Of a stretch of 64,000 nt of DNA, positions 5,256 through 47,911 are shown piece by piece (position 1 is the stretch's first letter; every line of letters starts with the position of its first letter). The DNA is from an uncultured Candidatus Saccharibacteria bacterium (GTDB lineage Bacteria > Patescibacteriota > UBA1384 > CAILIB01 > JAUSJZ01). The DNA is taken from assembly GCA_964421635.1 (NCBI GenBank), contig CAYQWZ010000003.1, positions 65,712-129,711 on the forward strand. The letters run 5' to 3'. The translations under genes were made by a program, and so were the position numbers. The notes under the pieces are model-generated. The model had not been told where the DNA came from, searched no databases, and saw nothing but the letters and a program-made list of their open reading frames with translations.

Positions 5256-5763
5256 AGAAGAAATCTTAAAAATATTGAAGGACAAACAGATTGAGCAGAA
5301 GCCTCGATGGCACTTTCAATTACAAAAAATACTAATTTGGACAGCTGTCATTGGAGGATTAATAATTTCAGGCTTGCTGTCTTCAGTGTTAATTCAATTT
5401 AGTTTAGCAGCTGGCGTCAAAGAAGTAATTGGTCCGAATTTTCCTGCTATAATAATGGCTTTCCGCCTTGTTCCTTCATTATTTATTCTTATTATTATGG
5501 TGGCAGTTTTAATCAATAGTATTTTAAATAAACTCACTCCAAAGGGTTATCGTGTGACTTACTTAAAATCCTTATTTATTACTTTAGCTGTTGTCGGTTT
5601 ATTAGGGTCACTGTTCTTTGGTTTGGGTGTGGGACCAAGAATGCATCAACAATTTTTACATATTAAACCGTACAAGGCTGAATTTGACCGGCGTCATAGA
5701 TTGCCGAAAGAGGAAATTAAAGGTGTGAGATATTATCCTCCGGCTGCGCGTACTAATAGGTGA
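5242..5763 (+). CDS. Membrane protein directly downstream of and overlapping the ECF sigma gene. Possible anti-sigma factor.
   Basis: Overlapping start, multiple TM helices, no recognisable catalytic motifs. Assignment rests on position only. Confidence 0.35.
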   Translation: MKKTKEEILKILKDKQIEQKPRWHFQLQKILIWTAVIGGLIISGLLSSVLIQFSLAAGVKEVIGPNFPAIIMAFRLVPSLFILIIMVAVLINSILNKLTPKGYRVTYLKSLFITLAVVGLLGSLFFGLGVGPRMHQQFLHIKPYKAEFDRRHRLPKEEIKGVRYYPPAARTNR

Positions 5764-18705: not shown

Positions 18706-19194
18706 TTACAACTTTTTTACCAAGCGGGTGCTGAGAGGTTGAAACTCGTTTTTTTGATAAAGATTTAGAGCTTCTTCATTGTCGTTATATACGGATACAG
18801 ATAGGTAATCGCGATTTTTTTTGATTGACCAGTCAATAGCAGTGGCAATTAAAGATTTCCCAACACCTTTATTTTGGTGTTCAGGCAGGACATATAAATA
18901 CTCAATATTTGCTTGTTTTGAACCATAATGATCGTCAGCTGCCTGAACATTATCAAATTGAACTTCGGCAAAACCGATGATTTGTTTCTCTACTGTGGCG
19001 ATAAAAATTACAGCTTTGCGATCTTCAAGTAAGCCAATATAATCACTTCGTTTAATAAAAGTTTTTACTAATCGCTCCTTAAAAATGTTCGGTAGTAACT
19101 GGTGATGATACTTTTGCCATGCACAATAAAGCCGATTAACGGCAGGATAATCTTTTTCTCTGGCGGATCGTATTTGGAAATTTAACTTATTCAT
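18706..19194 (-). CDS. GNAT family N-acetyltransferase (copy 1 of a tandem paralog pair).
   Basis: GNAT motif A region (EYLYVLPEHQNKGVGKSLIATAI). The N-terminus NFQIRSAREKDYPAVNRL is paralogous to NFSIRPAESGDYKAVNRL in the downstream copy. Confidence 0.8.
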   Translation of the reverse strand: MNKLNFQIRSAREKDYPAVNRLYCAWQKYHHQLLPNIFKERLVKTFIKRSDYIGLLEDRKAVIFIATVEKQIIGFAEVQFDNVQAADDHYGSKQANIEYLYVLPEHQNKGVGKSLIATAIDWSIKKNRDYLSVSVYNDNEEALNLYQKNEFQPLSTRLVKKL

Positions 19195-19261
19195 ACAAGC
19201 ACTTTATAGTTTTGGGTGTCCGGAGTCAACCGGACACCCTCAAGCGGAAGGCCGAGTCGAG

Positions 19262-19402
19262 CTATCGCCTGAACTTCGATCTGGTGAAGCTGGGCTTAGT
19301 CGGTCCTGGCTTTTTGCCAGGACCCTTCGGCCTTGATCTCTGATGACGATCGCGATGCGCCTTCTGACTACCAGTTGATTGGCGCCGTGGCTTATGTGAC
19401 AC
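19262..19402 (-). CDS. Small, strongly basic protein of about 46 aa encoded immediately upstream of GNAT copy 1. It has a GTG start with an AAGGTGG Shine-Dalgarno sequence and is not in the ORF track.
   Basis: Translation (V)SHKPRRQSTGSQKAHRDRHQRSRPKGPGKKPGPTKPSFTRSKFRR. It aligns with the copy-2 small ORF with many synonymous third-position differences, indicating purifying selection at the protein level. Confidence 0.55.
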   Translation of the reverse strand: MSHKPRRQSTGSQKAHRDRHQRSRPKGPGKKPGPTKPSFTRSKFRR

Positions 19403-19442
19403 TTGAATCACCACCTTTCGAAGTCAGCATAACATTAGAAAG

Positions 19443-19604
19443 ATTACAAAATTATTACGCAGAATTATTAGGTAGGTAGGATTGTAAATTGAAGTAGTTT
19501 ACGCTAAGCTAGCGGGTGAGATATTAATGCCCGGTGGCCAAATTGGTAAGGCAGCTGATTCTGGATCAGAAGATTGTAGGTTCAACCCCTACCCGGGCAA
19601 CCAA
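19443..19604 (+). repeat. Direct repeat copy 1 (about 162 bp): the tRNA-Gln upstream region plus the tRNA. Near-identical to 20497..20662.
   Basis: Only about 3 differences across the pair: a TAGG unit copy-number change, T/C at one upstream site, and C/T at tRNA position 3. Confidence 0.85.
19528..19603 (+). tRNA. tRNA-Gln (anticodon CUG) with encoded CCA.
   Basis: Manual fold gives a 7 bp acceptor stem with U1-A72, D-loop with GG, anticodon loop UUCUGGA, 5 nt variable loop and T-arm GTAGG-TTCAACC-CCTAC. It closely resembles E. coli tRNA-Gln. Confidence 0.8.
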
Positions 19605-19709
19605 ACGAAAGACCTCTGCTAATCGGAAATCTTTTCATTTGACTTCTTTTGGGATAAGGTTTGAACCGTGGTGGTTCGACTAAATAATTAACATATTTGG
19701 TGAGTATGT

Positions 19710-20201
19710 CTATTCTAAATCTTTATTTAACCGCAGGCTGCGCGTACTATAGCCATGCTCTTGCAGGAACATCTGCGCTTCTGTATTGTAGCCATACACT
19801 ATAGTCGATAATTCCGTGCCGTACCGGCGGGCCCAGCGCTCTGCTCGTTGCAGCAATTTAGAACCTAAACCTTGGCAACGGTACTTATCTTCAATGTATA
19901 GAGAGCCGATAACTGGCTGTTTGCTGGCCGTGGTTTCGTTATCAGCTGAGGTTTCTTCGATAAAGAGATAGATAACTCCGACAATGGTCTGATCGGCTAC
20001 GGCAACAAAAAGCTGGGTTGTTGATTGTTGCAGAAGTTGGTTATATGTATTGGCGGATAAGATGTAAGGTGGATTCTTCTTCAATGGGGAACGGGGCGAA
20101 CCCAAATAGTCAGCGTGGTGCAATGCCAACAACAACCGGTTAACTGCTTTATAGTCACCGGATTCTGCTGGGCGAATGGAGAAGTTTTGTTTGCCAGTCA
20201 T
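19710..20201 (-). CDS. GNAT family N-acetyltransferase (copy 2, paralog of 18706..19194).
   Basis: GNAT acetyl-CoA binding region (RCQGLGSKLLQRAERWARRYG). The N-terminus is conserved with copy 1. Confidence 0.8.
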   Translation of the reverse strand: MTGKQNFSIRPAESGDYKAVNRLLLALHHADYLGSPRSPLKKNPPYILSANTYNQLLQQSTTQLFVAVADQTIVGVIYLFIEETSADNETTASKQPVIGSLYIEDKYRCQGLGSKLLQRAERWARRYGTELSTIVYGYNTEAQMFLQEHGYSTRSLRLNKDLE

Positions 20202-20272
20202 TTTAATTTATTATACTGTTATTCACTATTAATAGAAGAGTGAGCCGCCCGTGGCGGGCGGCTCGAGGTGTG

Positions 20273-20431
20273 CTAACGCTTCGGTCTTGCTCCTGGCCGG
20301 TACTTCGGTGGCTGATAGCTCGTCCTAGTTGGTCCGGGTCCGGCACCCGGGCCTTTCGGCTTGCTGGTCTGATGCTGGTCACGATGTCGCTTCTGGTTGC
20401 CGGTCGACTGTTTCTTTCGACCGTGTGCCAT
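20273..20431 (-). CDS. Small basic protein of 52 aa, paralog of 19262..19402. Has an ATG start and a strong AAGGAG Shine-Dalgarno sequence. Not in the ORF track, which instead calls spurious overlapping ORFs in other frames.
   Basis: MAHGRKKQSTGNQKRHRDQHQTSKPKGPGAGPGPTRTSYQPPKYRPGARPKR. Followed by the strong hairpin GAGCCGCCCG-CCAC-GGGCGGCTC before GNAT copy 2. Confidence 0.6.
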   Translation of the reverse strand: MAHGRKKQSTGNQKRHRDQHQTSKPKGPGAGPGPTRTSYQPPKYRPGARPKR

Positions 20432-20496
20432 GGCCTTTCTCCTTTCTGTGGATTTCCATCTTTCAAGACGAATAGTCTTAATATATCACTGCTTAT

Positions 20497-20662
20497 ATTA
20501 CAAAATTATTACGCAGAATTATTAGGTAGGTAGGTAGGATTGTAAATTGAAGTAGTCTACGCTAAGCTAGCGGGTGAGATATTAATGTCCGGTGGCCAAA
20601 TTGGTAAGGCAGCTGATTCTGGATCAGAAGATTGTAGGTTCAACCCCTACCCGGGCAACCAA
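20497..20662 (+). repeat. Direct repeat copy 2 (tRNA-Gln upstream region plus tRNA).
   Basis: See copy 1. Confidence 0.85.
20586..20661 (+). tRNA. tRNA-Gln (anticodon CUG), second copy (G2-C71, U3-G70 variant).
   Basis: Identical to copy 1 except one C-to-T change in the acceptor stem. Confidence 0.8.
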
Positions 20663-20779
20663 AAAACAATTAAACATTCGGCCTGTCGGCAGGCAGGTAA
20701 CGAATTTTCGACGATTAGTATTCAGAAGAATTAGTCCCAGTTGGGGCTTTTTTGTTTGTCGACAAATTACTTAATGCTA

Positions 20780-20808
20780 TTGACAAAAAAGGCTCTTTAT
20801 AGTATAAA
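20780..20808 (+). promoter_or_regulatory. Consensus sigma-70-like promoter: TTGACA, 17 bp spacer, TATAAA.
   Basis: ttgaca-aaaaaggctctttatag-tataaa read directly. It drives the candidate sRNA. Confidence 0.55.
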
Positions 20809-20814
20809 AAACAC

Positions 20815-20984
20815 GGTGCAGCAGAAGCCCGAAAGGGTGTGGTGTCTACCCGCAGCCGACTAATATCAGTGAGACACCGACACGGCGCCAGATCGTTCTG
20901 GAAGTTATGCTGAAGACCCAGGACCTTGCAACCAGGTCAAAGCGGAACTTGCTCATCCCAACGCATCGGGGTGAGCAGTTTTTA
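20815..20984 (+). ncRNA. Candidate structured small RNA or cis-regulatory leader of about 170 nt. It is bounded by a consensus promoter and an intrinsic terminator. Its class is unidentified.
   Basis: GC-rich and stop-codon-rich in all frames. Internal helices include GGUGUCU...AGACACC and a GCCC-GAAA-GGGU tetraloop hairpin. It ends in the terminator UGCUCAUCCC-aacgcauc-GGGGUGAGCA plus a U-run at 20950..20984. Confidence 0.4.
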
Positions 20985-21027
20985 ATTTTAGAGAAATCCT
21001 TTATGACTACTATGATATTATTAAAAT

Positions 21028-21252
21028 ATGAAAATACAAACAGGCAAATATCGCCACTACAAAGGTAAAGATTATGAAGTAATAGGATTGGGCAGGCATA
21101 GCGAAACGCTTGAAGAGCTAGTAATTTACAAAGCTTTGTACTACTCCAAGGAATACGGAAATAACGCTATTTGGGCTCGCCCAAAGGCAATGTTCTTTGA
21201 AACAGTTGAGGTTGATGGTGAAACAAAGCCTCGTTTTGAGTATACTGGTTAA
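21028..21252 (+). CDS. DUF1653 family small protein.
   Basis: GKYRHYKGKDYEV...ALYYSKE matches the DUF1653 signature. Confidence 0.55.
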   Translation: MKIQTGKYRHYKGKDYEVIGLGRHSETLEELVIYKALYYSKEYGNNAIWARPKAMFFETVEVDGETKPRFEYTG

Positions 21253-37511: not shown

Positions 37512-38599
37512 AAATTTTTGATTGTACAGAAAAAGAGATTCAAAAATATAGTATAAAATATAAGGCACTTGGTTATGAATGGATTGATATAGTTGATGAG
37601 AATATTAGAGAGCTTGAAGAGATATATAAATATCAAGATGAAGCAATTATATTTAATCTGATAAAGAATAAAACCGTATTAGTCGATTATCCATGGTTGA
37701 GGAGTATAGTGAGGATTTGTCCAGAAGGGTATTTCCTCGAGTTACTTTCTTCAAGAAATAGGAATTTAATTAGCTCTAAAGAACAAAAGACACTTAGGAA
37801 GGCAAAGATCTCTGTTGCTGGTTTGAGTGTTGGAAGCAACATCTGTAAAATTATGGCAATGCAAGGTGTGGGAAGAGATTTTAATATTGCTGATTCAGAC
37901 ATCCTATCCTCAACTAATCTAAATAGAGTGAGCGAGAGTATTTTGAATGTTGGAAAGCCAAAGACACTATTAACCAAAAGAAGACTTTTAGAGATCAACC
38001 CTTTTTTAAATATAAATTTATTCAATAGAGGATTGACAATAAAGAATATCACGACATTCATCAGAGGAGCATCTGTTGTTTTTGATGAAATAGATAATTT
38101 AAATTTAAAACTTAAGTTAAGAGAGGCGGCAAAAAATGAGAGAAAACCACTTGTGATGATTACAGATAATGGTGATAACGTTATGGTGGATATTGAAAGG
38201 TATGATACAGACCCAAAACTGATACCTTTTCACGGCTTATTAAATAAGTTTGATCTTGATTTAATAAAAAAAGCAAAAAAGGGACTTAAACCAAGTGAAA
38301 GAGTTAAACTATCGTTGAAAATTGTGCAACCACAAAATGCAGTACCTAAAATGCAAAAATCACTTGTCGATGTTGGAAAAACATTAAACACATGGCCTCA
38401 ATTAGGGACTGCAGCGACACTTGCGGGTGCTGTTGGTTGTATGATTGCTAGAAAAATAATATTAAAAGAAGCACTTGTTTCTGGTAGGCGACACATCTCC
38501 TTAGACGCCGAACTTGAGCCAGGTCATAGAAAAGTAAGGTCAGTTCTGCGTAGACATATTCATACTATGAATTTCAAAAAGAGTTTAGGAAGAAAATGA
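37496..38599 (+). CDS. ThiF/MoeB/E1-like adenylyltransferase family protein with an N-terminal extension of about 100 aa.
   Basis: Rossmann motif ISVAGLSVGSNICKIMAMQGVGRDFNIADSDILSSTNLNRV (GxGxxG...D.D.V..SNLNRQ pattern). Confidence 0.6.
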   Translation: MDKEIKIFDCTEKEIQKYSIKYKALGYEWIDIVDENIRELEEIYKYQDEAIIFNLIKNKTVLVDYPWLRSIVRICPEGYFLELLSSRNRNLISSKEQKTLRKAKISVAGLSVGSNICKIMAMQGVGRDFNIADSDILSSTNLNRVSESILNVGKPKTLLTKRRLLEINPFLNINLFNRGLTIKNITTFIRGASVVFDEIDNLNLKLKLREAAKNERKPLVMITDNGDNVMVDIERYDTDPKLIPFHGLLNKFDLDLIKKAKKGLKPSERVKLSLKIVQPQNAVPKMQKSLVDVGKTLNTWPQLGTAATLAGAVGCMIARKIILKEALVSGRRHISLDAELEPGHRKVRSVLRRHIHTMNFKKSLGRK

Positions 38600-40890
38600 G
38601 TAGTGGTTTATTAATATTAATTATTGGAAGTCTTGCAAATTTAATGCTTGGTTGGTTAGTATTCAGAAATTCAAAAAGAAGATCTATTAAATTGCCTTTC
38701 TTCTTACTGACATTAGCTATTGTATTTTGGGCGATTGCAAATTATATATCAATAGTTGAAGTAAGACCTGAATCTATATTATTTTGGATGAGAACAGTAA
38801 TGAGTTTAGCGGTCTTTCAGTCGGTCTTTTTTTTGCTGTTTGCATTATCATTCCCAGAAGGGTTGCCAAAAAAATATTTTAAAATACTGTCCTATTATTA
38901 CATTCCGTTAGTGTTATTTGCAGTAATATTAACACAGACTAAATTTCTTTTTTCAGGTGTTAATATTGATGATATTACAAATCAAAGAAGTCCTATAATA
39001 CAGCCTGGTATGGTAGTATTTGTTGTTGTAGCAATAGGATCAATATTAGCTGGATTGATTAATCTTATTATCAAATATCGTAAGTTTATAGGTAGAAAAA
39101 GATTGTTAATTGGCTATCTTTTCATTGGGATCTTTATAATGTTCTTTTTATTAATTTTTAATAATTTAATTGTAGTTGTAATTTTTAAATATGATTCATA
39201 TGTTCAACTTGGTCCAATTTATACTTTGCCATTTGTATTAATTACTACCTACGCCATCCTTAAGCACCAGCTCTTCGACATTCGGGTTGTAATTCGGAAG
39301 ATTGTTGTTTACTCAGTTTTGTTGGCGGTGGTATTTGGAGTTTACTCGGGCGTTGTATCCTTATTAACTTCATATTTGCCAATCAACCAAACAATGGGTA
39401 GTCTGGTGGCTGCGCTGTTCATCGCCTTTGGCTTTGATCCTCTAAAAAAGAAGCTAACCGCCACCACTGAAAAATATCTGTTCGTCTCTGAATATAACGA
39501 CGACGAAGAAATCAAAAAACTAAGCTCAACTTTATCAAGTGTCATCGACCTAGACGAAGCACTCAGATCTTTAATGCAAAATGTTATGTCAGCCGTTAAA
39601 CTAGAGCGGGCAGCCACTTTGGTTTTATCGCGCAATGTTGAGCATCCTAATACCAAAGAAGTCGATGATCTACTCAATGAAGAACAGGGCAAAAAAGCCA
39701 AAGAAATTACAGTTAAAAGGATTCAAGAGGTCAATTTCAAAGCGCCCGACCGACTGCTAGGGCCAAGCATGCAGCCGGTAATTGAGTACTTCAACAAAAA
39801 GCCAACCATTCAGCTTTTGCAAACCATGATTCAAGAAGTTGAGGAATCGGAGCTAATTTACCAAAATCTAACCAAAAAAGTTTCCAAAGGACAGCATCTA
39901 GATTTAGCTGAGGGAGGGCGCGTTCTGGCCATTAAGAAAAAGGTGATAGAAGAACTTGAAAGGTTGAAAGTAGCAATTGTCATTCCAATTTTAGTGAAAG
40001 AGCAATTAGTAGGATTAGTCTTCTTCGGTGAAAAACTTTCAAATGACGCATTCTACGAACAGGATTTAAATTTCCTAGGTGTAGTCGGCTCGCAAACAGC
40101 GAACGCTATTGAAAAAGCTCGCTTCTACGAAGAGGACCAATTAAAGAGTGAATTTGTTTCTATTGCTTCGCACGAACTTCTAACTCCAACCGCCGCCATA
40201 GAAGGATACCTGAGCATGATTTTAGAAGAGAAGATGGCTAAGGTTGACCCTAAAGCAGAAGAATATTTATGGAAGGTCTTCAACTCTTCGAAGCGATTAT
40301 CTCGGTTAGTCAAAGATCTATTGTCTGTTTCGCGCATTGAAAGTGGACGCATTAAGGTTGAGTCAAAAGTATTTAATTTAGCAGAAGTTGTCAGCCAGCA
40401 AATGGATCAACTAATGATTAAAGCCAAAGAAGCCAACCTTTATTTGAAAGCCGATCTGCCTAAAATTCCAGCTAATGTTTTTGCCGATCCTGAGCGAGTT
40501 GCCCAAGCGGTCGTAAATTTGGTAGGCAACTCGCTGAAGTACACCAAAGAAGGCGGCGTCACAGTAAAAATTGCCCAAAAACCAAAATTCTACGAAGTGC
40601 AGGTAATAGATACGGGAATTGGTATTTCTCAAGAAGATCGTGAACATCTGTTTCAAAAATTTAGTCGCATCGATAACAAGCAAACGAGCGGTATTGCCGG
40701 CACCGGTCTTGGCTTGTACATTACCAAGTCAATGATAGAATTAATGGGAGGATCAATTTCAGTTCAATCAGAAGTTGGCAAAGGCTCAACCTTTGCGTTC
40801 ACAGTGCCTCGTCAAAATATCCGGAATGTTAAGCTTTCGGCTGGTCAGTCTGAATCCTTAAAAAATAAACAACCTCAAGTAAATAAATAA
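38596..40890 (+). CDS. Membrane sensor histidine kinase (multi-TM N-terminus, central GAF-like region, HisKA plus HATPase_c).
   Basis: H-box FVSIASHELLTPTAAIEGY, N-box VVNLVGNSLKYT, and G-boxes DTGIGI, GTGLGLYI. Confidence 0.8.
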   Translation: MSSGLLILIIGSLANLMLGWLVFRNSKRRSIKLPFFLLTLAIVFWAIANYISIVEVRPESILFWMRTVMSLAVFQSVFFLLFALSFPEGLPKKYFKILSYYYIPLVLFAVILTQTKFLFSGVNIDDITNQRSPIIQPGMVVFVVVAIGSILAGLINLIIKYRKFIGRKRLLIGYLFIGIFIMFFLLIFNNLIVVVIFKYDSYVQLGPIYTLPFVLITTYAILKHQLFDIRVVIRKIVVYSVLLAVVFGVYSGVVSLLTSYLPINQTMGSLVAALFIAFGFDPLKKKLTATTEKYLFVSEYNDDEEIKKLSSTLSSVIDLDEALRSLMQNVMSAVKLERAATLVLSRNVEHPNTKEVDDLLNEEQGKKAKEITVKRIQEVNFKAPDRLLGPSMQPVIEYFNKKPTIQLLQTMIQEVEESELIYQNLTKKVSKGQHLDLAEGGRVLAIKKKVIEELERLKVAIVIPILVKEQLVGLVFFGEKLSNDAFYEQDLNFLGVVGSQTANAIEKARFYEEDQLKSEFVSIASHELLTPTAAIEGYLSMILEEKMAKVDPKAEEYLWKVFNSSKRLSRLVKDLLSVSRIESGRIKVESKVFNLAEVVSQQMDQLMIKAKEANLYLKADLPKIPANVFADPERVAQAVVNLVGNSLKYTKEGGVTVKIAQKPKFYEVQVIDTGIGISQEDREHLFQKFSRIDNKQTSGIAGTGLGLYITKSMIELMGGSISVQSEVGKGSTFAFTVPRQNIRNVKLSAGQSESLKNKQPQVNK

Positions 40891-40892
40891 CA

Positions 40893-41381
40893 ATGGATGA
40901 AAACAAGCAAAGCATTTTGCTAGCCGAAGACGATGCGGTGTTGCAAGAGATGTATAAAGAGCGATTAACGGCCGAAGGATTTGCCGTAGATTTAGCCAAA
41001 GATGGTTTAGAAGCGTTAGATAAAATTCAAAACACCACCCCCAGTTTAATGATTTTAGATATTATGATGCCCAATTTAAATGGCATCGATGTATTGAAGA
41101 AAATTAAAGCCTCAGATAAAACTAAAAATATTCCTGTTATTGTGGCTACTGCGCTGGTGCAAGATATGACCGAAATAAAGAAGATGCTTGGCGCTAACGA
41201 TTCGTACTTAATTAAATCTGAAGTTATGTCCGGCGATGTAATTAAACTTGTTAAAGATAAACTCGGTGCCGCCGCCGCCAGCAATGGGGAAGCTCCCGTA
41301 GCTCCCGCCGAGCCAGCCGTTCCCGAACCACCAGTTGAACCTGCTGTGCCAAAAAATTCAACCGAACCCCCAGTTAATTGA
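40893..41381 (+). CDS. REC-only response regulator with a Pro/Ala-rich C-terminal tail.
   Basis: ILLAEDD...MILDIMMPNLNGIDVL...VIVATAL. Translationally adjacent to the upstream kinase. Confidence 0.8.
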   Translation: MDENKQSILLAEDDAVLQEMYKERLTAEGFAVDLAKDGLEALDKIQNTTPSLMILDIMMPNLNGIDVLKKIKASDKTKNIPVIVATALVQDMTEIKKMLGANDSYLIKSEVMSGDVIKLVKDKLGAAAASNGEAPVAPAEPAVPEPPVEPAVPKNSTEPPVN

Positions 41382-44547: not shown

Positions 44548-45755
44548 TAAAAAGCGTCAACTAAACCATACATTGGCTGTAATACGGAGACTAATAATAA
44601 GGCGATAGCGATACCCAACACAACCATTATTATAGGTTCTAGAGCGGCTGATAAATTACGGGTGGTGTTGTCAACTTCCTGTTCGTAGAAATTGGCAATC
44701 ACTTTGAAGGATTGATCAAGCGTGCCAGATTTTTCACCAACCTGAGTCAGCTGGGCTACCATATTGGGGAAATACTTACTTTCGCGCAACGCTGAGGCTA
44801 TAGGCATGCCATTTTCTACTTTCTTTTCAATATGTCCTAGCTCTTCCTCTATGGCGTCGTTACCGACTAGCTTTTTAGTAGTGGAGAAGATCTCCAAAAT
44901 TGGTAAGCCAGAAGATAACAACGAAGAAAAGCCGAGACTAAAACGGGCTAGATAGACATGCTTTAAAAGAGTGCCAAAAACTGGAACCCTCATCTTTATC
45001 TTATCCCAAAGTAGCTTGATTTTTTTGACTTTTAAGCCGAAGTGAAAAGCAATAAAACCAAAAATAATAAATAATATTAACCAGAGCCAATATTTAACAG
45101 TGAAGTCTGAAAGTTTAATTAACATTCTAGTGGACATCGGTAAATCTATACCGGCGTCATCGAAAACAGTTTTCAGTCTAGGAATTACAACAATCACAAT
45201 GACAGCAATAACTAACACCATTAAAATAGAGATTATCGCTGGATACATTAAGGCGGAGCGAACCTTGCCTTTAATTTCCGCATCCTTCTGCAGCTGTTTA
45301 GTTATGCGAGCTAAAATTTTATCTAAATTACCCGATTTTTCACCAGCTCGCACCATCTGTATATATACGGAGTCAAATGCTTTAGGATATTTAGATAGCG
45401 CCTCAGAAAGGGGAGCTCCTCCTTCAACCTCAGAAGCAAGGTCGTTAAGCATTTTAGAGATTGGCTTTTTGGTTGACTCAGAATTGATAGATTTTATTGC
45501 ATCTGACACAGACAAACCCGACTTGACCATGACGGCTAGCTGTTCAGTAAGAATTATCTTCTCTCTTAATTTGAGTTTAGTGCTTCCCTCGCCAAATAAG
45601 TCAGAATTAAAAAGTTTGCTGCCTTCTTCAACCGAAAAGATAATTAATTTTCTAGATCTTAATATTTTTCTGGCTTGACCAATTGATTTAGCGTCAATCT
45701 TACCTTTGATTGTCTGCCCATTATTGTCGCGTGCCCGATATTTATAAGTTGGCAT
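44547..45755 (-). CDS. pilC: Type IV pilus platform protein PilC (GspF family).
   Basis: Two T2SS-F domains and three TM helices. About 400 aa. Confidence 0.85.
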   Translation of the reverse strand: MPTYKYRARDNNGQTIKGKIDAKSIGQARKILRSRKLIIFSVEEGSKLFNSDLFGEGSTKLKLREKIILTEQLAVMVKSGLSVSDAIKSINSESTKKPISKMLNDLASEVEGGAPLSEALSKYPKAFDSVYIQMVRAGEKSGNLDKILARITKQLQKDAEIKGKVRSALMYPAIISILMVLVIAVIVIVVIPRLKTVFDDAGIDLPMSTRMLIKLSDFTVKYWLWLILFIIFGFIAFHFGLKVKKIKLLWDKIKMRVPVFGTLLKHVYLARFSLGFSSLLSSGLPILEIFSTTKKLVGNDAIEEELGHIEKKVENGMPIASALRESKYFPNMVAQLTQVGEKSGTLDQSFKVIANFYEQEVDNTTRNLSAALEPIIMVVLGIAIALLLVSVLQPMYGLVDAF

Positions 45756-47911
45756 TAATCTTTAGTTACTCTCCATACTTCTTCTAGTGAGGTAATACCG
45801 TCAATCGCTTTCATTAATCCATCTTGCATCATAGTTGTCATGCCGTCGGCAATGGCTTGAGCAGAAATTTTTGAGTCGTCTGAACTTTGATTAGCAAGTT
45901 CTTTTATAGCGGTGTTGACATCTAAAATTTCAAATAATCCTACTCGGCCTTGGTAGCCAGTGTCGTTACAGACTTCGCAGCCTTTGCCCTTAAAGAAATT
46001 CATTTTGGCGGGCATTTTGTAATCCTTAATTTTGGCTAGCTCTTCTTTAATAGTCTGTAGTTCTTGGGCCGAAGGATTATAACTTTCCTTGCAGTGCTCG
46101 CAAATTTTTCGCGCTAGTCTTTGAGCGATAACTGTATTAACAGATGAAGAAATTAAGAATGGTTCTACACCCATATCTATTAGGCGAGGGAAGGCGCCAG
46201 CGGCGTTGTTGGTGTGTAAAGTAGAGAGCACAATGTGGCCTGTGAGGGCGGATTGAATAGCAATTTCGGCTGTTGGTTTATCACGAATTTCACCAACCAT
46301 AATAATGTCTGGGTCTTGACGCACAATGGCTCGCAATCCATCGGCGAAGTTGTATTTAATGTCGGGGTTGACCTGACTCTGGTTAATTCCCTCAATTCTA
46401 TATTCAATCGGATTTTCTAGAGTCACAATATTTACTCCGACATCCATTAGTTGACCTAAAAGTGCGTACAGGGTGGTAGTTTTGCCAGAACCGGTTGGTC
46501 CGCAAACCAAAGTCATGCCGAAGCTTTTTTTGACATTGTTTTTTACAATATCGTAAGAACGGCCACGCACACCAATTTCTTCCAAAGATAATATTCCTTG
46601 CGATTTGTCGAGTACGCGCATAACTGCTTTTTCGCCGTCTGCTACAGGTAAAATTGAGAGACGAAAGTCAACTCGGTTTTTATCTATCTCTATCATAAAT
46701 CGTCCGTCCTGAGGTAGGCGGTGCTCATCAATTTTTAGGTTGGCAATAATTTTGAGCCTAGCAATTATAGCTGCTTGAATAGTCTTTGGCAGCCTTATTC
46801 GTTCGCGCAGTACACCATCAATCCTAAATCTTATTACCACAGCGTTTTCGTAAGGCTCAACATGAATATCTGATGCCTTCTCCCGCACCGCCCGTCGCAT
46901 TAGTGACAGTACAATTTTGGAGGTAGGAGAATCTTCACCTGAAGTTTCCACATTTTCGTTCTGGGCTTGGGCAATCTCTTTTTTAGAAATTTCTAAGTCA
47001 GTATCTTTAATGACCGTTTCAACTTCTTTCTCCAAGCCTGAATATTGGTTTAAAATTCGATTGATATCTTCGGTGGTGGCCAAAACAGGCACTACATCGC
47101 GGCCAGTGCTTTTTTTAATCAGCTGAACTATCTCTAAGTTTTCAGGATCAACCATAGCCACTGTAATGGTGTTTTTGTCGGCTTCTATGGGGGCGGCTTT
47201 GTGACGGCGAGCGAAAAGTTCAGGCAAAATATTTAAGATTTTTTTGTCAACCTTAATATTAGATAAATCTTTGTAGCTAATAGTTTTTGGCTTGATAGCT
47301 TGCCTAAATTGGCTAGTTTGGGTTTTGGCGTCTACGGTTATAGGATCGCGTTTCTTAAATTTATCAAACAGAATCAATAGATTCGGCGATTTTTTATTTT
47401 GTTCCGTCTTCACTGTTTCTGCTGTTGCTGGTTCTGTCGCTGTCTCAGCAGGCGCTGCTGCTTCAATGATATCTTCTTTCAGCTCAGTGTCAGCTTCAAA
47501 CTCAGCCACATTAACACCATCGCCAGCTTGATTTTCGCCTGCCTGAATTTGATCAACTTCATCTGGCGGAGCACTCATCACTTGGCCATCTTTGTCGTAA
47601 CGAGTAGCGACTTTATGCAAAGTGCCACGACGGATTTCCACCGCATTTCTAAATTTGTCGGCCGGTTTAAACTTAACAACTTTTGTTGGAAGGATTAATA
47701 TCTGATGACCGCGACCCTGCGGGTCAGGCACCGATTTAGAAGGATAGTGGTGAATCTTGAAACGACCAAAATTGGTAATATTAACAACCTCACCTTTATT
47801 AAGGCTGCCGGCAATAACATTTGAGATCTCGTTTATTATTTTCCTAGAACGAGCTAAAGATAGCCCTGACCGCTGGGCTACTAAATTATAAACATCGGAT
47901 GTTTTTAGCAT
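45755..47911 (-). CDS. pilB: Type IV pilus assembly ATPase PilB (GspE family) with an N-terminal HU/IHF-fold domain fusion.
   Basis: Walker A GPTGSGKTT, a T2SSE_N domain, and a C-terminal CxxC zinc motif. N-terminal residues 1-95 align to HU (VNITNFGRFKIHHYPSKSVPDPQGRGHQILILPTKVVKFKPADKFRNAV versus the HU consensus GFGTFEVRxRAARTGRNPQTGEEIKIPAxKVPxFKAGKALKDAV). Confidence 0.85.
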   Translation of the reverse strand: MLKTSDVYNLVAQRSGLSLARSRKIINEISNVIAGSLNKGEVVNITNFGRFKIHHYPSKSVPDPQGRGHQILILPTKVVKFKPADKFRNAVEIRRGTLHKVATRYDKDGQVMSAPPDEVDQIQAGENQAGDGVNVAEFEADTELKEDIIEAAAPAETATEPATAETVKTEQNKKSPNLLILFDKFKKRDPITVDAKTQTSQFRQAIKPKTISYKDLSNIKVDKKILNILPELFARRHKAAPIEADKNTITVAMVDPENLEIVQLIKKSTGRDVVPVLATTEDINRILNQYSGLEKEVETVIKDTDLEISKKEIAQAQNENVETSGEDSPTSKIVLSLMRRAVREKASDIHVEPYENAVVIRFRIDGVLRERIRLPKTIQAAIIARLKIIANLKIDEHRLPQDGRFMIEIDKNRVDFRLSILPVADGEKAVMRVLDKSQGILSLEEIGVRGRSYDIVKNNVKKSFGMTLVCGPTGSGKTTTLYALLGQLMDVGVNIVTLENPIEYRIEGINQSQVNPDIKYNFADGLRAIVRQDPDIIMVGEIRDKPTAEIAIQSALTGHIVLSTLHTNNAAGAFPRLIDMGVEPFLISSSVNTVIAQRLARKICEHCKESYNPSAQELQTIKEELAKIKDYKMPAKMNFFKGKGCEVCNDTGYQGRVGLFEILDVNTAIKELANQSSDDSKISAQAIADGMTTMMQDGLMKAIDGITSLEEVWRVTKD

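Follow-up and report, generated by a model that had tools for sequence, protein, structure and literature searches.

The 64,000-nucleotide stretch of Candidatus Saccharibacteria DNA analysed here, referred to as the window throughout, is a metagenome-assembled segment of a bacterial chromosome with a GC content of 0.40 that also encodes DnaE, GltX, GroEL and a type IV pilus ATPase. On its reverse strand lie two copies of a short gene for a small basic protein, each followed by a gene for a putative acetyltransferase of the GNAT superfamily. Copy 2 (20273–20431, stop included) starts with ATG and encodes 52 amino acids (MAHGRKKQSTGNQKRHRDQHQTSKPKGPGAGPGPTRTSYQPPKYRPGARPKR); a Shine–Dalgarno sequence, AAGGAG, was read at 20439–20444, 7 nucleotides (nt) 5′ of the start codon. 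Copy 1 (19262–19402, stop included) encodes 46 amino acids, (M)SHKPRRQSTGSQKAHRDRHQRSRPKGPGKKPGPTKPSFTRSKFRR, from a GTG at 19402, and its Shine–Dalgarno sequence, AAGGTGGTGA, was read at 19408–19417, 5 nt 5′ of the GTG. The listing of open reading frames (ORFs) placed the copy 1 start further out, at 19414. The upstream in-frame GTG codons fall within AAGGTGGTGA, and the family alignment (M-[AS]-H...) places the start codon at GTG 19402. A tblastn search of the whole window with copy 2 found no further copies (E 1e-35 and 4e-16 for the two copies, next 0.11).

All remaining parts of the two units lie on the same strand. A GC-rich hairpin of 10 base pairs, nine of them G-C, occupies 20242–20264, 8 nt after the copy 2 stop and before GNAT2 (19710–20201, 163 amino acids). 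The corresponding hairpin of copy 1, also of 10 base pairs and with a 6-nt loop, lies at 19214–19239, 22 nt after the stop and before GNAT1 (18706–19194, 162 amino acids). Neither GNAT gene has a Shine–Dalgarno sequence; TATAAT and TATAAA stand 8 nt before the ATG of GNAT2 and GNAT1, respectively. A sigma-70-like promoter directed toward copy 2 (TTTACA-17-AATAAT, 10 of 12 positions matched) was located at 20518–20546, inside a repeated block shared with a tRNA-Gln gene. Copy 1 lacks one TAGG unit, which shortens the spacer between these hexamers to 13 nt, and the promoter scan did not report them there. Each copy thus appears to be independently expressed, given its own Shine–Dalgarno sequence, the hairpin that follows and, at copy 2, the promoter-like element.

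A preliminary description of this locus had proposed that the short ORF with a ribosome-binding site upstream of each GNAT gene encodes a conserved protein rather than a structured RNA. Both ORFs were found where it placed them, and the two copies aligned residue by residue without a gap, with 27 of 46 residues identical. Its statement that most nucleotide differences are synonymous did not hold literally, as about 23.6 of 57 were synonymous; the purifying selection that it read from them was nevertheless evident in the per-site rates. In the claimed frame, the proportions of synonymous (pS) and nonsynonymous (pN) sites that differed were 0.72 and 0.32 (Nei–Gojobori), giving a pN/pS of 0.44, compared with 0.92 and 2.09 in the other two sense frames. 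The wobble-matched antisense frame mimicked the coding signal (0.45), as expected. The switch of serine codons between families was likewise seen, in one codon that reads TCA in one copy and AGC in the other.

The same signal extended over the family described below. Across codons 2–29 of 28 distinct genes, pN was lower than pS in all 378 pairs, and entropy was 42.7 at the third codon position compared with about 22 at the first and second. Since these codons were partly fixed by the search pattern, the test was repeated on the C-terminal codons 22–45 of 11 members, where pN/pS was 0.42, pN was below pS in 55 of 55 pairs and the off-frame values were 1.2–1.5. Neither ORF had an Rfam match. These results demonstrate that both small ORFs are genuine protein-coding genes.

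Some properties of the region are those of a structured RNA. Its GC content is 0.55–0.67, compared with 0.40 for the window, and its folding is more stable than that of shuffled sequence (z −2.4 and −5.4), the high z-scores coming mostly from the terminator-like hairpin that lies outside the ORF. A second hairpin, on the codons for GPGxxPGP, folds in 11 of 11 members of that type, and the window copies show two seemingly compensatory wobble changes in it. This signal vanished across the 11 members, in which wobble–wobble pairs were complementary in 14 of 33 cases against 13.8 expected, so that selection at the RNA level was rejected. The hairpin is a by-product of the complementarity between glycine (GGN) and proline (CCN) codons.

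Small proteins are systematically missed by gene callers, and the peptide gene is indeed absent from the called genes on record for this contig. The long ORFs that had been described as spurious, at 20203–20466 (reverse strand, 87 amino acids) and 20240–20533 (forward strand, 97 amino acids), exist in frames without a coding signal and overlap the unrecorded true gene. At copy 1 the alternative-frame ORFs reach only 43 and 48 amino acids, with no equally long counterpart.

Relatives of the two peptides were recovered from genomes and metagenomes by profile searches and a DNA-pattern scan, about 40 in all and 44–76 amino acids long. The preliminary description had named a lack of related peptides in other genomes as grounds for giving up its claim; this outcome did not arise, and the gene proved more widespread than the window alone could reveal. 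Searching 1.84 billion representatives exhaustively with HMMER and a two-sequence profile returned 8 proteins (44–66 amino acids, E 2e-15 to 3e-4), and a profile of those 8 gathered 26 clusters from a 5.8-billion-sequence set, all of them 'hypothetical' or unnamed and without a Pfam domain. A word-indexed protein search with a single peptide and a back-translated scan of genome contigs returned nothing, both being too strict. The family consensus is M[AS]H..KKQSTG[SN].KG.RD.H[QE]...PKGPG..PGPTK..Y.P.KF[KR], with H3, Q8, G11, D18 and H20 invariant in the 28-sequence alignment. The N-terminal 21-residue motif, M[ASTGP]H..KKQSTG[SN].KG.RD.H[QE], is common to all members and to several phyla; the Pro/Gly/Lys-rich C-terminal half, PKGPG..PGPTK..Y.P.KF[KR], is confined to members from the candidate phyla radiation (CPR). 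The homologues have comparable Shine–Dalgarno sequences (for example GGAGG, AAGGTGG and GGGGGT).

A degenerate DNA pattern for the N-terminal motif matched in the window only the two copies (0 expected) and recovered every known locus. Applied to one genome per GTDB species, it gave 12 matches, 10 of which were confirmed by the family hidden Markov model (HMM): three in Berkelbacteria and one each in Saccharibacteria, Absconditabacterales, Peribacteria, Gracilibacteria, a Verrucomicrobiales metagenome-assembled genome, Prosthecobacter and Ginsengibacter (Bacteroidota). In JGI metagenomes, 17 of 19 matches were genuine by the same model. Members thus come from Berkelbacteria, Saccharibacteria, Gracilibacteria, Absconditabacterales and Peribacteria, and also from Verrucomicrobiota and Bacteroidota. 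On the family HMM, copy 2 scored 77.9 bits and copy 1 72.1 bits; the nearest relative of copy 2, P0011, is 73% identical to it and also has a GNAT gene 3′ of it.

A viral origin was considered and rejected, as all six IMG/VR pattern matches, together with L032 and L035, were an unrelated conserved sequence (MTHLVIRQCKGN..) scoring 14–19 bits on the family HMM. This sequence, MTHLVIRQCKGN.RSYRDCHQ..., present in L032, L035 and L050–L055, matches the pattern by chance; it probably reflects a conserved phage gene read out of frame. No domain was found by Pfam or NCBIfam in any of the 18 peptides scanned at E ≤ 10, no PDB chain matched the family profile at E ≤ 10, and literature keyword searches gave no match to the motif. 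Judging from these searches, the peptides form a new conserved microprotein family that spans phyla, is rare and non-viral, and is absent from Pfam, NCBIfam and PDB. The family can be recognised by a diagnostic motif, and its members are cleanly retrieved by a DNA pattern.

The peptides are strongly basic, with isoelectric points (pI) of 10.1–12.0 and 9–19 lysine and arginine residues, and carry no signal peptide. AlphaFold, run with a 20-sequence alignment, gave no secondary structure (predicted local distance difference test score, pLDDT, 70; predicted template-modelling score 0.21), and the peptide is therefore predicted to be an intrinsically disordered polycation. Except for Q in P0016 and N in L024, the members have A, S, T, G or P as their second residue. 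Methionine aminopeptidase is established to act before such small residues; the initiator methionine should therefore be removed, exposing Ala-His or Ser-His, a typical site of N-acetylation.

To assess the link to the acetyltransferase, an HMM was built from the downstream GNATs and all loci were scored with it; 18 distinct loci of the PKGP type had enough downstream DNA. The same GNAT subfamily lay 3′ of the peptide gene in 14 of them (both window copies, L005, L007, L012, L014, L017, L019, L025, L029, L031, L033, L034 and L040), which bears out the association suggested from the window. The GNAT gene began 24–102 nt after the peptide stop in the HMM-scored loci, and spacers were 49–114 nt in the survey of module anatomy; the flanking genes varied between loci, across Berkelbacteria and Saccharibacteria. 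When loci were fetched through the GNAT alone, three of five held an uncalled peptide gene upstream, including a variant lacking His3 (MASPKRQKQSTG..) and a divergent one (MTHGGKRQSTTGS..). Pairwise identities of peptides and GNATs were correlated (Mantel r 0.40; 95 of 5000 permutations reached the observed value), and in the window both genes have been duplicated together. In CPR bacteria, the peptide gene forms a conserved two-gene module with one narrow, PaiA/RimI/AAC(6′)-like GNAT subfamily. At L006, a high-GC relative (GC 0.63), the place expected for the GNAT is taken by an IS200/IS605-type transposase at 5419–5726 (..YHLVLVPKYRKRVL..).

The two window peptides are 56–59% identical, GNAT1 and GNAT2 only 29%, and both peptides are nearest the L005 peptide. 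The two modules are therefore old paralogues or separate acquisitions and not a recent tandem copy. Each is flanked by a forward-strand tRNA-Gln(CTG) block, at 19443–19605 (tRNA 19528–19603 with the 85 nt 5′ of it, oriented away from the peptide gene) and at 20497–20663 (tRNA 20586–20661). The 99–100% identity of the blocks most likely stems from gene conversion or a later duplication, and their sole length difference is one TAGG unit. A functional link of the tRNA to the module was rejected, as the neighbourhood is specific to the window: no tRNA stands beside the peptide gene in five other loci, L005–L009. The two peptide genes together contain nine glutamine codons, and eight of these are CAG, which the neighbouring tRNA-Gln(CTG) reads, in a genome of 40% GC; this may be a coincidence.

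The downstream genes are, from profile matches and the predicted fold, GNAT superfamily acetyltransferases. Pfam Acetyltransf_1 was matched at 3e-13 by GNAT2 and 2e-16 by GNAT1, the subfamily HMM gave 168–210 and 180–219 bits, respectively, and the acetyl-CoA motif R/Q-x-x-G-x-G/A is present (RCQGLG, QNKGVG). The AlphaFold model of GNAT2 reached a pLDDT of 89 and template-modelling (TM) scores of 0.7–0.8 to solved GNATs. With 36 clusters at 144–261 bits, the subfamily is small and clearly delimited, and it has a conserved acidic loop with the consensus IEKxDGDEW. Its nearest solved structures and models are PaiA, BH1408, 3jvn, Ard1, AAC(6′), Hpa2, SSAT and RimI, and the closest relatives (PaiA, SSAT, AAC(6′), RimI, Ard1, Hpa2) act on cationic amines or protein N-termini. 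The NCBIfam PaiA model was matched by 34 of 34 members, the most of any model, at no more than 55 bits against an equivalog cut-off of 250, and the PaiA structure 1tiq was the second-best PDB sequence match of the subfamily (5e-17). The RimI model was matched weakly by 33 of 34 members (best 5e-11), at no more than 37 bits against a cut-off of 86.4. No member reached an NCBIfam equivalog cut-off for polyamine or antibiotic enzymes, and none of the toxins TacT, AtaT, KacT and ItaT was among the best 60 of 118 PDB-sequence matches or the best 50 Foldseek matches.

The expression signals of the module differ between its two genes. The peptide gene has a good Shine–Dalgarno sequence at every locus; none of the 14 GNAT genes has one at normal spacing. 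A GC-rich hairpin follows the peptide stop in 14 of 14 peptide–GNAT loci, starting 3–30 nt after it, with sequences unrelated between loci, spacer folding energies of −13 to −39 kcal/mol and an AT-rich stretch next to it. Ten of the 14 loci have a TAnnnT box that ends 3–9 nt short of the GNAT start codon; such hexamers are common in AT-rich DNA. These features are only suggestive of a short or absent GNAT leader and of a peptide output much higher than that of the GNAT. Members that lack a GNAT have canonical terminators, made up of a hairpin and a T-run, after the ORF.

Taken together, these observations suggest that an enzyme may be encoded beside its own substrate. We propose, with a probability of roughly 45%, that the GNAT acetylates the peptide at its N-terminal Ala/Ser or at lysine, tuning the binding of the polycation to RNA, the ribosome or DNA. 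The proposal is drawn from the conserved adjacency, the joint duplication, the substrate classes of the GNAT relatives and the asymmetry of expression. The microprotein would bind a polyanion by charge, most likely RNA or the ribosome and less likely DNA. The adjacent GNAT would acetylate it, at the Ala/Ser exposed by methionine removal or on lysine side chains, and acetylation would tune or abolish the binding. The strong Shine–Dalgarno sequence of the peptide gene, the hairpin between the genes and the possibly leaderless GNAT gene would yield much peptide and little enzyme, which is the ratio expected for a substrate and its modifying enzyme. Two of the roles that the preliminary description had listed for the peptide, nucleic-acid or ribosome binding and an acetylation substrate, remain plausible.

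Several findings weigh against this proposal. The linkage of the two genes is not obligatory in either direction. Four of the 18 PKGP-type loci lack the GNAT and have other genes in its place (L009, DUF4407; L006, an IS200-like transposase; L026 and L027, other genes), none of the eight members with the N-terminal motif only has a GNAT downstream, and the members from Verrucomicrobiota, Bacteroidota, Gracilibacteria and other groups stand alone without a GNAT neighbour. The protein must therefore function without the GNAT in such members. Conversely, two of the five GNAT-anchored loci have no peptide gene, and their GNAT directly follows a HisKA_7TM histidine kinase (L045, 2501–2989; L048, 2501–2992). 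The family is also rare, the strict pattern being found in 10 of 185,579 species genomes (a lower bound), and is therefore not a core ribosomal component. The terminator-like hairpin may place the peptide and the GNAT on separate transcripts. As for the enzyme, its acidity is not uniform (pI 4.9–9.6), and in GNAT2 a leucine replaces the subfamily's near-invariant tyrosine of the FY..N motif, the usual general acid of GNATs, which GNAT1 keeps; one of the two paralogues may thus be catalytically altered.

In a more far-reaching version, the pair would be a previously undescribed kind of acetyl-switch module, complete in itself. The disordered polycation would bind ribosomes or RNA, for instance as a factor in hibernation or in the modulation of translation, or as a peptide toxin directed at the ribosome; the dedicated, co-encoded GNAT would turn this activity off or on; the module would have spread horizontally among ultra-small CPR bacteria; and the older motif AH..KKQSTG..KG.RD.H would be a ribosome- or RNA-recognition element shared across phyla. 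All of this holding together we regard as unlikely. CPR organisms have tiny genomes in which most conserved genes are of unknown function. CPR/Patescibacteria keep this peptide gene paired with one narrow acetyltransferase subfamily. If the acetylation proposal is true, the module would offer a rare instance in bacteria of a protein acetyltransferase dedicated to a substrate with which it is co-encoded, and it could reveal a new regulation of a ribosome- or nucleic-acid-binding factor by charge neutralisation.

The alternative that survives best is that the two genes are independent neighbours: the peptide would be a factor on its own, such as a stress protein or one that binds RNA, the ribosome or DNA, the GNAT would act on a polyamine or an aminoglycoside- or streptothricin-like antibiotic, and their pairing would reflect co-regulation or co-transfer in an accessory island. 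The solitary members with their own canonical terminators in other phyla, the GNATs without a peptide at L045 and L048, the hairpin between the genes and the −10 box that the GNAT may own are all consistent with it. Moreover, the best family matches of the GNAT are PaiA, AAC(6′) and streptothricin acetyltransferases, and aminoglycoside phosphotransferase (APH) and glyoxalase/bleomycin-resistance-type genes lie near the L005 module. On the other hand, order and spacing have been kept in 14 of 18 loci of Berkelbacteria and Saccharibacteria amid unrelated flanks, the genes have been co-duplicated in the window, their divergences correlate, and every GNAT member falls short of the equivalog cut-offs for polyamine and antibiotic enzymes. 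We consider independence doubtful, though a serious competitor.

It is improbable, in our judgement, that the pair is a conflict module, either a GNAT toxin with a new small basic antitoxin or a cationic, proline-rich, ribosome-targeting toxin with an acetylating GNAT as its immunity protein. The distribution does look patchy and accessory, with integrase, restriction, insertion-sequence and helicase genes near some loci, and whole modules have been duplicated in the window. TacAT, AtaRT and KacAT consist of a small upstream gene and a GNAT of roughly 160 amino acids, a layout that the present one resembles, and the Pro/Lys/Arg-rich C-terminus recalls proline-rich antimicrobial peptides. Yet the peptide has neither a ribbon-helix-helix (RHH) or DUF1778 domain nor any Pfam match, and it lacks a signal peptide; the GNAT found no TacT/AtaT/KacT-type toxin among the matches listed above. 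The genes neither overlap nor are translationally coupled, being separated by a hairpin-bearing spacer, and each partner also occurs alone. PADLOC gave no match, and a role in anti-phage defence was rejected on this ground.

Still less probable is a regulatory leader peptide, in which translation of, or stalling on, the Pro/Gly-rich ORF would control the hairpin and thereby GNAT expression, as in attenuation of the erm/cat type. The order of ORF, hairpin and gene is conserved, with the hairpin 3–30 nt after the stop, and the PGP/PPK stretches could slow ribosomes. Purifying selection, however, acts over the whole 45-residue sequence, and the N-terminal motif is also kept in phyla with a monocistronic gene that ends at a canonical terminator and has no regulated partner. 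The distance from stop to hairpin varies, and the GNAT start codon is not sequestered. One dominant hairpin appeared in the minimum-free-energy folds, in which no antiterminator pairing was seen, without a dedicated search for alternative pairings.

The remaining reading, that the ORF is a GC-rich structured RNA or a chance frame in stop-poor sequence, is effectively refuted by the codon-periodic substitution in this sense frame only, by the retention of ORF, start codon and Shine–Dalgarno sequence in about 40 homologues with saturated synonymous sites, and by the Rfam and wobble-pair results given above.

Three further observations concern other parts of the window. A third GNAT was sought behind the HisKA_7TM kinase at 38596–40890, and the ORF there (40893–41381) proved to be a response-regulator receiver. 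On the forward strand, at 20775–20990, a promoter-like TTGACA-17-TATAGT precedes about 150 nt of GC-rich sequence (0.53–0.55 compared with 0.40) that ends in a terminator-like hairpin (20949–20978) and a T-run, about 45 nt before a DUF1653 gene (21028–21252). This sequence has no Rfam match and a fold z-score of −2.0, and could be a small RNA or a riboswitch-like leader. An unusual fusion is encoded on the reverse strand at 45755–47911, where an HU-type Bac_DNA_binding domain (2e-14) stands at the N-terminus of a PilB-like type II/IV secretion ATPase.

Comparison with known systems can provide insight into the role of the module. The type II toxin–antitoxin systems of the GNAT–RHH kind (TacAT, AtaRT, KacAT, ItaRT) share with it the short upstream gene, the GNAT of roughly 160 amino acids and a patchy accessory distribution. 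The three defining features of these systems that we tested are all absent. The upstream peptide has no RHH/DUF1778 domain and no predicted secondary structure, the GNAT falls outside the tRNA-acetylating toxin clade (best 60 PDB-sequence and best 50 Foldseek matches), and the genes, which also occur alone, are separated by a hairpin without overlap, the GNAT having no Shine–Dalgarno sequence.

The peptide itself resembles small ribosome-associated proteins such as bTHX, bS22, bL37, Sra, RMF and the tail of bL27 in its size class (25–55 amino acids), its extreme basicity and the lack of an independent fold. It differs from them in having no Pfam, NCBIfam or PDB match, and the family is too sparse for a core ribosomal protein. 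The bL27 tail starts AH-x5-ST, with the same spacing as the peptide family; homology to this N-terminal tail (MAH-x5-ST) was rejected, as hhalign against Escherichia coli bL27 gave a probability of 1.8% over 11 residues, and the likeness is a resemblance only. A likeness to SERF/4F5 (KKQS..KGKR.D) was rejected in the same way: the probability against human SERF2 was 0.25%, with only KKQS aligned, and Pfam gave no match.

Among acetyltransferases, PaiA and SSAT act on linear polycations, and the GNAT subfamily matches both the PaiA model and 1tiq. It scores far below the equivalog cut-off, and the candidate polycation is here a gene-encoded Lys/Arg-rich peptide. RimI, RimJ and RimL, which act on bS18, uS5 and bL12, are likewise small GNATs (about 150–190 amino acids) paired with small basic proteins that have an Ala/Ser N-terminus after methionine removal. 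The N-terminus of uS5 is Ala-His, as in the peptide family. The fold matches of the GNAT include structures of RimI and Ard1; no subfamily member reaches the RimI cut-off. The Rim substrates are core ribosomal proteins, whereas the putative substrate here is a rare accessory microprotein encoded beside its enzyme. Acetylation of Alba by Pat/Ard1 in Sulfolobus, and of mycobacterial HU by Eis, neutralises charge and lowers the affinity for nucleic acid. The proposed action of the GNAT on a small basic protein is of this kind, and Ard1 of S. solfataricus ranks among the ten best structural matches of GNAT2. The present peptide is rare and predicted to be disordered, whereas Alba and HU are near-universal, abundant and folded. 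By analogy, the nearest functional counterparts of the module would be the Rim enzymes with their ribosomal proteins, Alba with Pat, and HU with Eis.

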